Shown here piece by piece: positions 409 to 23,635 of a stretch of DNA of 64,000 bases. The notes under the pieces are model-generated. The model saw only the letters and a list, made by a program, of their open reading frames with translations. It did not search any database and was not told where the DNA came from. Numbering within the stretch: position 1 is the first letter of the stretch; every line of letters starts with the position of its first letter. The translations under genes and the position numbers were made by a program. Where the stretch lies: assembly GCA_000146465.1 (NCBI GenBank), contig CP001951.1; one strand, given 5' to 3'.

Positions 409-1041
409 ATGAGTCTTGAGGAAAAGCTAATGAAAAGGCTAGAGGGAGGGATGTTTCGGATACTGAACGACAAGATGTACCATGGAAAGGGCTTAAAGAA
501 GAGGGACTTGAAGCTATATCATGAGCTGTATGATCAGCAGGTTAAGCGATGGCCAGTTAATCCTCTTGATGTTATTATTGAGAAGATAAAGAAGAAAGGA
601 AATGGCATGGCGATAGCAGACATAGGATGTGGAGATGCTCGGATTTCCAGGGAGTTTGAAAATGTAATGTCCTTGGATCTGAATCCTTCTCGAAAGGATA
701 TAATCCGCTGCGATATGAGACAAAGGATCCCTTTAGATGACAAGAGTGTGGACATTGCAGTTTGCTGTTTAAGTATGATGGCTGAGAACATTTCGGTTCC
801 TATGAAGGAGGTAAACCGGATACTAAGGGAGTCGGGGTACTGGTATATAGCAGAAGTCAAGAGCAGGATACCTAATATAAAGCATCTGGAGAAGAAGTTT
901 GAGAGCTTTGGGTTTGAAGTTGAGCATACCGACATGTCAAATGCACAGTTTATTCTTTTCGTTTTGAAAAAGAATCTAGATAAGAATCCGAAGAAACTTC
1001 CACCGGTCAGATTGATTCCATGGGTTTACAAGAAGAGATGA
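409..1041 (+). CDS. RRP8: rRNA-processing protein 8 (Rrp8 / Methyltransf_8 family nucleolar methyltransferase)
   Basis: ATG at 409. Family signatures QQVKRWPVNPLDVIIEKI and SAM motif IADIGCGDA. CCC motif (ccccuggaATG) upstream. Confidence 0.75.
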   Translation: MSLEEKLMKRLEGGMFRILNDKMYHGKGLKKRDLKLYHELYDQQVKRWPVNPLDVIIEKIKKKGNGMAIADIGCGDARISREFENVMSLDLNPSRKDIIRCDMRQRIPLDDKSVDIAVCCLSMMAENISVPMKEVNRILRESGYWYIAEVKSRIPNIKHLEKKFESFGFEVEHTDMSNAQFILFVLKKNLDKNPKKLPPVRLIPWVYKKR

Positions 1042-1078
1042 AGGTGGAAAGAGGAAACTTGATGTTTACTACCTTTGG

Positions 1079-1495
1079 CTACTTGGCGGAAACTCCGAAG
1101 AAGAAGACAAAAGCTGTTGAATACACCGAGTAGTATATGAAGAACAGGATTGATACAACGATGTCTGGCGTGGTCATAGTGAAGCACTCTCTGCAGTTCT
1201 TGTATCCCATCCTCATTACAAACACATTATTCATGATGATGAAGAATGCCAGGAGGTTCATTATCTTTGCAATAACATGGAGAGCTTAAATTAAAGATAG
1301 CACTTACCATTTATGATTCTAAAATACAGCTTTCCTTTCTTTGCCATTGGTTTTACAAGAGACAGAGCTGTGGAATATGTTATTATAACTATGAGAACCT
1401 GGCTTCCGTAGAAATATCTTGGTGCTAGGGATGCAGTGAGGATCAGTCCGAGGAGCGATGAAATCTTTGAATTAGTAGGGCAAGGCACTTACCAT
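1079..1495 (-). CDS. small four-TM membrane protein, three exons: complement(join(1493..1495,1308..1464,1079..1284)), 121 aa
   Basis: ATG 1495..1493 is followed directly by GTAAGTG (intron 1465..1492). Exon 2 ends AAATG|GTAAGTG (intron 1285..1307). Splicing joins track ORFs 1291..1488 and 1079..1261 in frame (..RIIN-A-LHVIAKIMNLLAFF..). Confidence 0.6.
1285..1307 (-). other. spliceosomal micro-intron 2 (23 nt): GTAAGTGCTATCTTTAATTTAAG
   Basis: Same GTAAGTG / TAATTT / AAG architecture. Removal fuses exon 2 to the downstream ORF in frame. Confidence 0.55.
1465..1492 (-). other. spliceosomal micro-intron 1 (28 nt) of membrane-protein gene: GTAAGTGCCTTGCCCTACTAATTCAAAG
   Basis: 5' GTAAGTG directly after ATG; CTAAT branch-like motif 6 nt before the 3' AAG; removal keeps frame. 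Confidence 0.6.
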
Positions 1496-1668
1496 TTCCA
1501 TCTTGTCTTTGAACATCATTGTGGTCTGGGGTTGGGTGTTTAGATGGTTTGTTGATGCCAAGAAGGGAGGCCATGGTAGCTTGATGGGCTAGAGACAGCA
1601 AGGGTTCCCTTGGACACATTGGGAATGGATGGCTAGAACGGAGAAGTAAAAAATATTTCGGGATCCCT

Positions 1669-3303
1669 ATGACTCGGAGATTCACCATGACGCCGAACTC
1701 CAGGAATTCTATTAAGACACCTATTTCAGGGGCGAAGGTTGCTCTATTTCCAAGACACTCTGTAGCGGCTGAGGAGATCAAGAGGAGGGATATGAGGCTG
1801 GTGAGAGAGAAAGGATACAAGCAGCAGTGTGTTGACACTATTTTAGGGTTTTTGATGGAAAATGGATACGATGGACAGATATCACAGAAGATCATGCATA
1901 ACCCGTCTTCGAAGGACTTCCAAAGTATCTTCAAGTTCCTGTATGGATTTGTGGACGACTTTGTGTTCTCCTCAAGGTTTGAGGACGAAGTTGTGAATGT
2001 GATGAAGAATTTGAGGTATCCATATTGCGGGGAGATTACGAAAAGCCAGCTGAGTGCAATAACACCCCACACATGGCCTGTAATTCTAAGCATGTGCAGC
2101 TGGCTAGTGGAGCTGATAAGGCATGGAGCAACTCTTCTCGAGCAGGAGGAAGAGAAGAGTGTTGAGAGCTGTTTCTTTGAGTATGTGTGTGATGGGTATA
2201 TGAGATTTATGGAAGGAGATGAGGATGATGCGGCTCTTGAGGAGGAATTTGAGAGGAAGGTCACAGAGATATACACGGGGATATTTAAGGAGATCGATCG
2301 AAAGAAGGAGGAACTTTCCCGGATTGAGGAGATGATAGGGAAGTCTCGAAGGATGTCTGAAAGCCTTGGAGAGCTGGAGAGAAAGAAGAGAGAGTTGACA
2401 GATGATCTGAACATGCTGATAGCTTCTGAGAAACAGCTTGAGGGGAAGAAGAAGAAGTATCTAGGGGCTATTGAGCGTCTTTGCGAAGATATTGCAAGGG
2501 TTGAGGAGGAGATTGAAAGCCAAAGGGTACAAGAGGAAGGATTGAGGGTTCAAATAACGAAACAGAAGATCAATCCTGAAGACGTAAGGGAGATGAATAC
2601 CGAGAAGATGGAGTTATTTAAGGAGCTAGAAAGAATGAAGCCGGAGAAGGAGGGGCTTATGAGAGAGGTAGGAGAACAAGAAAGAGAAGCACAGGAAAAG
2701 GTTGAAGAGGTTGAGAAGTTGTTTTTTGATCTGAAGGGTCTTCGAGATGAGATTTCATTGAGGATAGTGAAGGACACAAAGGGAGGGGTCCAAGTAGTGA
2801 ATGAGGTAAGCAACGAGGTGTTTGACAACGGAATAGCTTCGGTGATTGTACGTCTTGAAGAGGAGCTAAATGGAAGAAGTGATGTTCTTGTGGCAGGGGA
2901 GATGAACAAAGGTATGCTTGAGGAAGCAAGGGCAGAGAAGGAAGGAATGTCTAGCGAACTAAGCAACAGACTCAAATATTGCAGTGATAAGCTTTTGATG
3001 GCAGGAAAGTTGTATCTGGAGAAGAAGGAGATATCTGAGAACGAGCAAAGGAAGAGCAAGACCGAAATGGAGCTGCTGGAGAACGAACTTCTGAAGCTCA
3101 ATCTGGAGTCCAACACGTCTCTGCTGATGAGTGAGCAGAAGCTACAAAAAGCCAAGATACTTCTTGACAGAACACTCAACACCATAAACTATGAGAGAGA
3201 GGAGATTAGCAAGATGGTGTTTAACTTCTACAACACAGTTGTTGATGTTCATACATTGATCCAGTCACAGGTTGGAGACCTGAGGACCTTACTGAACAGG
3301 TGA
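1669..3303 (+). CDS. NDC80: kinetochore protein NDC80/HEC1
   Basis: N-terminal calponin-homology domain (KDFQSIFKFLYGFVDDFVF, HTWPVILSMCSWLVEL) followed by a long coiled coil. GGGATCCCT sits immediately before the ATG. Confidence 0.75.
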   Translation: MTRRFTMTPNSRNSIKTPISGAKVALFPRHSVAAEEIKRRDMRLVREKGYKQQCVDTILGFLMENGYDGQISQKIMHNPSSKDFQSIFKFLYGFVDDFVFSSRFEDEVVNVMKNLRYPYCGEITKSQLSAITPHTWPVILSMCSWLVELIRHGATLLEQEEEKSVESCFFEYVCDGYMRFMEGDEDDAALEEEFERKVTEIYTGIFKEIDRKKEELSRIEEMIGKSRRMSESLGELERKKRELTDDLNMLIASEKQLEGKKKKYLGAIERLCEDIARVEEEIESQRVQEEGLRVQITKQKINPEDVREMNTEKMELFKELERMKPEKEGLMREVGEQEREAQEKVEEVEKLFFDLKGLRDEISLRIVKDTKGGVQVVNEVSNEVFDNGIASVIVRLEEELNGRSDVLVAGEMNKGMLEEARAEKEGMSSELSNRLKYCSDKLLMAGKLYLEKKEISENEQRKSKTEMELLENELLKLNLESNTSLLMSEQKLQKAKILLDRTLNTINYEREEISKMVFNFYNTVVDVHTLIQSQVGDLRTLLNR

Positions 3304-3396: not shown

Positions 3397-4251
3397 ATGA
3401 AGAAGACCAATAAAAAGCCCAACGGAGGGAAATTCCGGAAGGAAAGTAGAATGGCTCGGCCTGACAAAAGAGGGGGGAGAGAAAGGATGAATAACAAGAA
3501 GAAGGGGAGTGTACGGGCCGGGCTTGATAAAAAGGTCTTAGTTGAGCCGCATAGGAGGTTTCCAGGGGTTTATGTTAGTCGGGGGAAGGAGGATCTTTTG
3601 CTTACAAAAAGCTTGGCACCAGGGATTAGCGTGTATGGAGAAAGGAGGATTACTGTTGATGTTGAGCAAGAAAGAATCGAGTATCGGGTCTGGAATGTTT
3701 ATCGAAGCAAGCTTGCAGCAGGAATTGTTTGTGGGGTTGAGAACATCCACATGGGCCCGGGAAGCAAAGTGTTGTATCTAGGGGCTTCATCCGGTACAAC
3801 GGTTTCCCATGTCTCGGACATTGTTGGGAAGGACGGAGTGGTGTATGCCGTGGAGTTCAGTGAAAGATCTGGAAGAGATTTGATCAACATGTCTATGAAG
3901 CGTCCCAACATCGTTCCGATAATAGAGGATGCAAGACATCCATCGAGATACAGAATGCTTGTGCCGATGGTTGACTGCATCTTTTCGGATGTTTCACAGC
4001 CCGACCAGACAAGAATTGTTGCCTTGAATGCCCAGTACTTCCTAAAGGAAGGAGGAGGAGTTGATGTGTCGATCAAGGCCAACTGTGTCAACTCGTCAGT
4101 CCCTGCAGAAACAGTCTTTGCAGAAGAGGTGAACATCCTGAGGAAGCACAACATCAAGCCAAAGGAGCAAGTGACTCTCGAGCCGTTTGAAAAGGACCAT
4201 GCAATGATAGTCGGGAAGTTTAGGCTGTCCAAGTCTGGAGAAAAGAAATAG
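3397..4251 (+). CDS. NOP1: fibrillarin (rRNA 2'-O-methyltransferase Nop1)
   Basis: Basic Arg/Lys-rich N-terminus followed by a fibrillarin methyltransferase core ([28 protein letters not shown]). Confidence 0.9.
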
Positions 4252-23008: not shown

Positions 23009-23480
23009 TTAATAAGTAATTATCCACTTCCCCCCAACTCTTGTGATCTCTTCTTTTGCTGATGGCGTGAAATACCTGGCTTTGACAACAATCGGCCTTT
23101 CCAAAGGCAGCTTTCCTCCAATAACAATGTGATATCCAAACTCCCTGACATCGATCACAGGAACCTTCTCAACGTTATCCAGGAACTCGTATCTTTGCTC
23201 CTTTGGGATCATCCCCCACAGCCTTGCAGAGCTGATTGGGCGGGCATAGTTCGAGTTCTCCTTCCTGTGGTAAACCCTCATTCCTCTCTTTCCATGGTAG
23301 TCCGGATGGAATCTTGTGAAAAGAGTCTTCATGTGGCTGAATCCTCCTGCCAGCCCTCGGCCTCCAGAGTGTTTTCTATGCTTTCCTACACGTCCATGTC
23401 CGTGCGATACATGCCCTCGCATCTTTCTAGTCTTCTTAACCTTTTCTGCCTTCAAATTAGCTCAGATAGCCACTTACCAT
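23009..23480 (-). CDS. RPL27A: 60S ribosomal protein L27a (uL15), two exons: complement(join(23478..23480,23009..23449))
   Basis: The spliced product [37 protein letters not shown].. is the canonical uL15 N-terminus. Track ORF starts at a TTG inside the intron/exon 2. CCCTGAA sits before the ATG. Confidence 0.8.
23450..23477 (-). other. spliceosomal micro-intron (28 nt) directly after the RPL27A start codon: GTAAGTGGCTATCTGAGCTAATTTGAAG
   Basis: ATG|GTAAGTG. CTAAT branch-like motif 6 nt before the 3' AAG. The spliced frame restores a canonical protein. Confidence 0.75.
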
Positions 23481-23635
23481 TTCAGGGATAAAATTTTTAC
23501 CTCGACAAATACAAGCAATCCAATTTTCTTCAATGGCCATCCATTTTCCACTCAAGCCGTTGTACAGGCGCCTGATGCAGGAATGTGAAACTGTCGTTTG
23601 AGCAAGGTTCAAAAGAAGTGCAAGCACACTCTGAA

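Follow-up and report, generated by a model that had tools for sequence, protein, structure and literature searches.

Among the closest described systems are the short introns of Encephalitozoon. In E. cuniculi, 37 introns of 22-76 nt with GT-AG boundaries and strict motifs have all been confirmed by RNA-seq; 81% of the junctions were spliced in <50% of transcripts, and two-intron genes are few (Grisdale et al., 2013; PMC3629993). E. intestinalis has a 2.3-Mb genome in which introns are very few and very short (PMC4355639). The 37 confirmed introns of E. cuniculi include two 'recently discovered' ones that came from a comparison of four species (PMC3629993), and these are very probably the introns of ECU10_0805, because this is the only spliced gene transferred from that comparison. 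The assignment is our own; ECU10_0805 goes unnamed in the text of PMC3629993 and is not in its table of expression (FPKM) values. Here we analyse the E. intestinalis orthologue of this gene, Eint_100755, within a stretch of 64,000 nucleotides of contig CP001951.1, referred to below as the window.

Gene model and identity

Eint_100755 occupies positions 1079..1519 on the minus strand of the window, which belongs to E. intestinalis chromosome 10, and comprises three exons and two introns (Table 1); chromosome coordinates are obtained by adding 96,000 to those of the window. A preliminary description of the locus had proposed a three-exon gene missed by the track of open reading frames, and the mechanical list indeed holds only two fragments of it, at 1291..1488 (65 aa) and 1079..1261 (60 aa). 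An ATG directly before GTAAGTG is present at 1495..1493 on the minus strand as claimed, exon 2 does end in AAATG/GTAAGTG, and the two proposed micro-introns, 1465..1492 (28 nt, GTAAGTGCCTTGCCCTACTAATTCAAAG) and 1285..1307 (23 nt, GTAAGTGCTATCTTTAATTTAAG, both given for the minus strand), proved to be real, exact in their coordinates and conserved in seven lineages. Their joint removal leaves, as predicted, an open frame of 366 nt with 121 codons and the TAG stop at 1081..1079, the junction reading ..FRIIN-A-LHVIAKIMNLLAFF.., and when one intron or both are left in the window sequence, early stops follow. The proposal of one 121-aa four-helix membrane protein was right as to the single gene and the four helices but not as to the length, which is 129 aa with a start 24 nt farther upstream.

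Translation of 1519..1493 joined to 1464..1308 and 1284..1079 gave an exact string match to the database protein Eint_100755 (P0001), and the 121-aa spliced product was 100% identical over 100% of its length to Eint_100755 of E. intestinalis ATCC 50506. Belkorchia et al. (2015, PLoS One; PMC4589312) list Eint_100755 in their Table S1 as complement(join(97079..97284,97308..97464,97493..97519)) and ECU10_0805 as complement(join(109856..110061,110085..110241,110270..110296)). The former coordinates equal those of the window plus 96,000, with exon and intron sizes of 206/23/157/28/27 that match exactly, and the latter agree with the E. cuniculi locus compared here (L002). In the same table the accessions are given as CP001951 for ECU10_0805 and AL590449 for Eint_100755, yet 109856..110296 matches AL590449.1. 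Eint_100755, ECU10_0805, EROM_100680 and KMI_02g03350 of E. hellem, all annotated as hypothetical proteins, are one gene with a common structure of three exons and two introns, and the database orthologues from the four Encephalitozoon species are each 129 aa long. The database model of Eint_100755 does not differ from the gene found here, whereas the version first proposed lacked the 8 N-terminal codons. The gene is thus already known, its model having been available from GenBank and publications since 2012-2015; in full-text literature searched by locus tag no mention was found, and the gene is listed only in the supplementary Table S1 of PMC4589312. In our judgement it is very likely that 1079..1519 on the minus strand is the annotated gene Eint_100755, the orthologue of ECU10_0805, from which two introns are spliced out to encode a four-pass membrane protein of 129 aa.

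Table 1. Coordinates of Eint_100755, its neighbours and flanking signals, and the intron of uL15/L27a in the window.
Feature	Position	Strand	Remarks
Methyltransf_8 protein	409..1041	+	neighbour
AGTAAA, putative polyadenylation signal	1065..1070	-	aligns with AATAAA of the orthologues; in 37-nt convergent spacer
Exon 3	1079..1284	-	206 nt with TAG stop 1081..1079; TM helices 3-4 and NVFVM..G..C..C loop
Intron 2	1285..1307	-	23 nt, phase 1; GTAAGTG, TTTAAT branch box, TTAAG
Exon 2	1308..1464	-	157 nt; TM helices 1-2 and basic loop KPMAKKGKLYFRIIN
Intron 1	1465..1492	-	28 nt, phase 0, after codon 9; GTAAGTG, variable middle, TACTAAT branch box, TCAAAG
Exon 1	1493..1519	-	27 nt, ATGATGTTCAAAGACAAGATGGAAATG = MMFKDKMEM; start codon 1519..1517
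CCC, candidate CCC-like transcription-start signal	1529..1531	-	invariant in alignments; ~10 nt upstream of ATG 1519
Upstream block AACAAACCA	1545..1553	-	invariant in four Encephalitozoon species and L005; in 149-nt divergent spacer with Ndc80
Ndc80	1669..3303	+	neighbour
Fibrillarin	3397..4251	+	neighbour
uL15/L27a micro-intron	23450..23477	-	28 nt, GTAAGTGGCTATCTGAGCTAATTTGAAG; directly after ATG; CDS runs on to 23009

Signals, conservation and coding context of the introns

Both introns begin with GTAAGTG and end with AG, and thus have GT-AG boundaries; putative branch boxes are found as TACTAAT, 5 nt from the AG, in intron 1 and as TTTAAT, 3 nt from the AG, in intron 2, and the lengths of 28 and 23 nt fall within the published range of 22-76 nt (PMC3629993). 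GTAAGT alone occurs at 14 sites in the window against 16.9 expected, which is chance level. When the 64 kb were scanned with a strict intron model, introns 1 and 2 were the only matches, but this count of two, compared with 0.66-1.2 in shuffled sequences with shuffle maxima of 3-6, is on its own not above chance. Chance is excluded by the arrangement of the two sites on the same strand at a distance of 157 nt, by the one frame that they restore together and by the conservation of both positions across seven lineages. These are the window, E. cuniculi (L002), E. hellem (L003), E. romaleae (L004) and three loci of sequencing-run or metagenome origin (L005, L009 and L008, the last a 1-kb metagenome scaffold).

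Both introns were found at identical positions in 7/7 lineages, at protein identities to the window as low as 52%. Exon 2 measures exactly 157 nt in all seven, while intron 1 ranges from 25 to 30 nt and intron 2 from 23 to 26 nt. GTAAGT, the TAA[TC] branch box and the terminal AAG are invariant in the seven lineages and the middles of the introns vary; in intron 1 the invariant parts are GTAAGTG and the TAA..AAG 3' block. Removal of the introns restores one conserved frame and retention leads to a stop or a frameshift, the exception being intron 1 of L008. In the five species checked, retained intron 1 would leave a peptide of 14-15 aa and retained intron 2 a truncated product of 63-66 aa, the stop usually being the branch-box TAA in frame and, in intron 2 of E. 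hellem and E. romaleae, an earlier TGA. In the most divergent intron-bearing relative (L008:426-668, P0015) intron 1 is 30 nt long, in frame and stop-free, so that its retention would add 10 residues rather than truncate the product, unlike the rule stated for the E. cuniculi introns; the database protein P0015 reads through it (..DKLEI-VSAFSNSNFK-LTSAITL..).

Among five species, the fractions of variable alignment columns at codon positions 1/2/3 were 0.33/0.22/0.67, 0.49/0.31/0.79 and 0.36/0.28/0.68 for exons 1, 2 and 3, respectively, and this third-position bias shows each of the three to be constrained as coding sequence when read in the spliced frame. The corresponding values for the introns, 0.24 and 0.35, lie below those of the third positions, in agreement with the genome-wide pattern described for this genus, of introns that are more conserved than silent sites (Corradi, 2010; PMC4355639). 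Two distant homologues, P0014 (L006) and P0017 (L007), carry the whole four-helix protein in one uninterrupted ORF across both junction positions, and therefore the exons of Eint_100755 belong together.

These data also bear on the view that no splicing takes place, that the ORFs 1291..1488 and 1079..1261 are either genes of their own or non-coding, and that the resemblance to introns is coincidental. Gene callers run on the assemblies of relatives did annotate individual exons as proteins in their own right (P0005, P0007, P0010, P0015 and P0021), and splicing in E. cuniculi is generally inefficient, with 81% of junctions below 50% (PMC3629993). However, the 65-aa ORF 1291..1488 would have to start at a GTG within intron 1, exon 3 has no conserved first in-frame Met (position 7 or 16), and conservation at the protein level extends to both splice junctions and ends there. 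With the exon lengths fixed as they are, the spliced frame is the only one open in 7/7 lineages, and the homologues P0014 and P0017 read through both junctions as one ORF. We consider it extremely improbable that the locus remains unspliced, and retain the gene model with two introns.

The preliminary description had further taken the ATG together with the following intron as a unit duplicated inside the gene, in an otherwise intron-free locus. Neither point was borne out. The two introns have only splice signals in common, and the codon before them varies across lineages, being ATG or ATC at intron 1 and ATG or ATA at intron 2. The 12-mer AAATGGTAAGTG occurs in exactly three copies in the window, where 0.34 would be expected with one mismatch allowed, and the third copy, at 23471..23482, lies at the 5' end of a third intron, 23450..23477, in the unrelated gene for ribosomal protein uL15/L27a. 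This gene (Pfam PF00828; 23450..23480 on the minus strand, continuing to 23009) is represented in the ORF track only by a TTG-start ORF of 148 aa that begins within the intron. The strict intron model had barred a G before CTAAT and so left the uL15 intron outside; a relaxed scan recovered it. Since the same 12-mer precedes an intron in an unrelated gene, AAATGGTAAGTG represents the extended context of 5' splice sites in this genus and not an intragenic duplication, and introns 1 and 2 can be ruled out as duplicates of each other. The 28-nt uL15 intron shares with those of Eint_100755 the AAATG/GTAAGTG context and a TAAT branch box followed by the 3' AG. It differs in that the ATG of uL15 is the true initiator, with an exon 1 of 3 nt, whereas the ATG before intron 1 of Eint_100755 is codon 9.

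Start codon and flanking regions

The annotated and conserved start of Eint_100755 lies 8 codons upstream of the ATG that adjoins intron 1, at 1519..1517, so that exon 1 is 27 nt long and the first intron does not follow straight after the initiator, as had been proposed. The four database orthologues begin with M-[ML]-[FV]-KDK-[ML]-E-M, and among the lineages the peptide of the 8 upstream codons is conserved as M-x-x-K/R/Q-D-K-x-E. Six of the lineages have an exon 1 of 27 nt, while that of L008 measures 33 nt. Intron 1 is preceded by ATG in 5/7 lineages and by ATC in L005 and L008; in these two that codon therefore cannot be the initiator, and the upstream ATG is the sole one in frame. Exon 1 of E. 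intestinalis itself holds four in-frame ATGs, at 1519, 1516, 1501 and 1495.

The original model, with initiation at ATG 1495..1493, a bare start codon as exon 1 and a 121-aa product, draws on the retention of this ATG in 5/7 lineages, and an initiator ATG followed at once by an intron is a classic Encephalitozoon arrangement, of which uL15 (23450..23480) is an example in the window. It is nevertheless very improbable: besides the ATC at this codon in L005 and L008, whose only in-frame ATG is the upstream one, the 8 upstream codons display a coding-type substitution pattern (0.33/0.22/0.67) together with their conserved peptide, the invariant CCC sits upstream of ATG 1519 rather than of 1495, and every database model as well as the published model starts at 1519. 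Judged by these alignments, ATG 1519..1517 is the initiator of Eint_100755, a later ATG of exon 1 being conceivable in E. intestinalis.

CCC/GGG-like motifs are known to lie 5' of Encephalitozoon transcripts (PMC5499648), and the CCC at 1529..1531 would be a signal of this kind. The block AACAAACCA lies ~30 nt upstream of the start codon in a spacer that is otherwise poorly conserved, and is a possible promoter element of Eint_100755 or of the divergent Ndc80. The gene order fibrillarin, Ndc80, Eint_100755, Methyltransf_8, Ada3 and RFC is conserved at all syntenic loci, the 1-kb scaffold L008 excepted.

Antisense to Ndc80, a serine/leucine-rich ORF of 323 aa at 1443..2414 on the minus strand reaches into exon 1 and intron 1; it is almost certainly spurious, being a shadow ORF of the strand that codes for Ndc80. 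Over the whole window, GC skew and AT skew change sign together in blocks of several kb, among them positive ones at 1-4 kb and 24-32 kb and a negative one at 4-12 kb, and these blocks probably follow the orientation of purine-rich coding strands.

Protein family and comparison with described systems

An exhaustive phmmer search of 1.84 billion representatives returned 15 matches. Three of these were long proteins (P0006, P0011 and P0018); the others were all small, comprising full-length relatives of 110-135 aa and single-exon fragment entries of 55-89 aa. P0006 and P0011 were rejected as relatives, being false positives that arise from adding weak matches over tandem repeats, and the long protein P0018 has a multi-stretch match pattern like theirs. 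Single exons have been deposited as separate proteins of 55-80 aa in public collections for L005:3001-3183, L009:2501-2668, P0005, P0007, P0010, P0015 and P0021, and automatic gene callers routinely miss the two-intron structure in related microsporidia.

The family is seen only in microsporidia. Across its 13 members N81, G88, C92, C95 and Y113 are invariant, within the motif NVFVM..G..C..C. AlphaFold2 applied to the family alignment predicted a four-helix bundle (pLDDT 87, pTM 0.76), and the product is by this prediction a confidently modelled four-helix membrane bundle. The loop between TM2 and TM3 (loop 2) contains +2 to +5 basic residues in 10 full-length members, with +4 in the four Encephalitozoon species. 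By the positive-inside rule this loop and both the N and the C terminus would be cytosolic, and therefore the TM3-TM4 loop with its G..C..C motif would face the lumen or the exterior.

The suggestion that the product might match small ER/Golgi membrane protein families found no support in Pfam, in PDB sequences or in any significant fold match. Neither the 121-aa product nor any of the 13 family members matched a family in Pfam scans, a sequence profile search of the PDB gave 0 matches even at E<=10, and a fold search yielded only generic four-helix-bundle matches, none of them significant. Sub-threshold Pfam matches (Maf_C, PMP22_Claudin and others) were dismissed as scattered noise. In overall architecture the protein can be likened to the four-pass membrane bundles of MS4A/CD20/FcεRIβ, MARVEL (synaptophysin), sarcospan, tetraspanin and claudin/TARP. 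The hallmark of the Claudin / PMP22 family is a large first extracellular loop with a W-GLW-C-C motif. Loop 1 of the present family has only 3-4 residues and just one of the 13 members gave a sub-threshold match to PF00822 (E 0.013), which argues against membership there; for tetraspanin, MARVEL and MS4A no sequence-profile match and no fold match above generic helical bundles was obtained, and membership was likewise rejected.

Taken together, we propose that Eint_100755 would be transcribed from the 149-nt divergent spacer that it has in common with Ndc80, yielding a pre-mRNA that contains two U2-type GT-AG introns, ultra-short at 28 and 23 nt. Both would have to be excised by the reduced microsporidian spliceosome so that the exons (27, 157 and 206 nt) form one reading frame of 390 nt, and only the doubly spliced mRNA would encode the 129-aa four-pass membrane protein; were either intron retained, translation would be expected to end at the branch-box TAA, or at the earlier TGA in intron 2 of two species. 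In the protein, the G..C..C loop between TM3 and TM4, on the side of the lumen or exterior, could form a disulfide or bind metal, the role of the cysteines being presumed from their position. Splicing of Eint_100755 is supported by conservation and by published work on the E. cuniculi genome, which carries the orthologue, and its actual efficiency is presumed. For this microsporidia-restricted protein, with its CxxC loop predicted to be luminal or extracellular, it is in our estimate rather unlikely that inefficient splicing serves to set the dose, intron retention giving dead-end products of 15 aa or 66 aa.

Eint_100755 is a non-ribosomal gene with two introns, one of few such genes in a genome that has <50 introns; the preliminary description was right that it is not a ribosomal-protein gene. 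Both of its micro-introns are fixed in position down to ~50% protein identity, and more distant homologues are intronless. That a reader of the sequence alone can recover a real two-intron gene missed by ORF tracks matters little past quality control, and the gene could serve as a convenient reporter for the minimal microsporidian spliceosome. Its introns resemble the published short introns of Encephalitozoon (PMC3629993), which likewise have a GTAAGT 5' site and a branch box only a few nucleotides before the 3' AG, and likewise cause a stop or a frameshift on retention; the position of intron 1 is 5'-biased, as theirs are.
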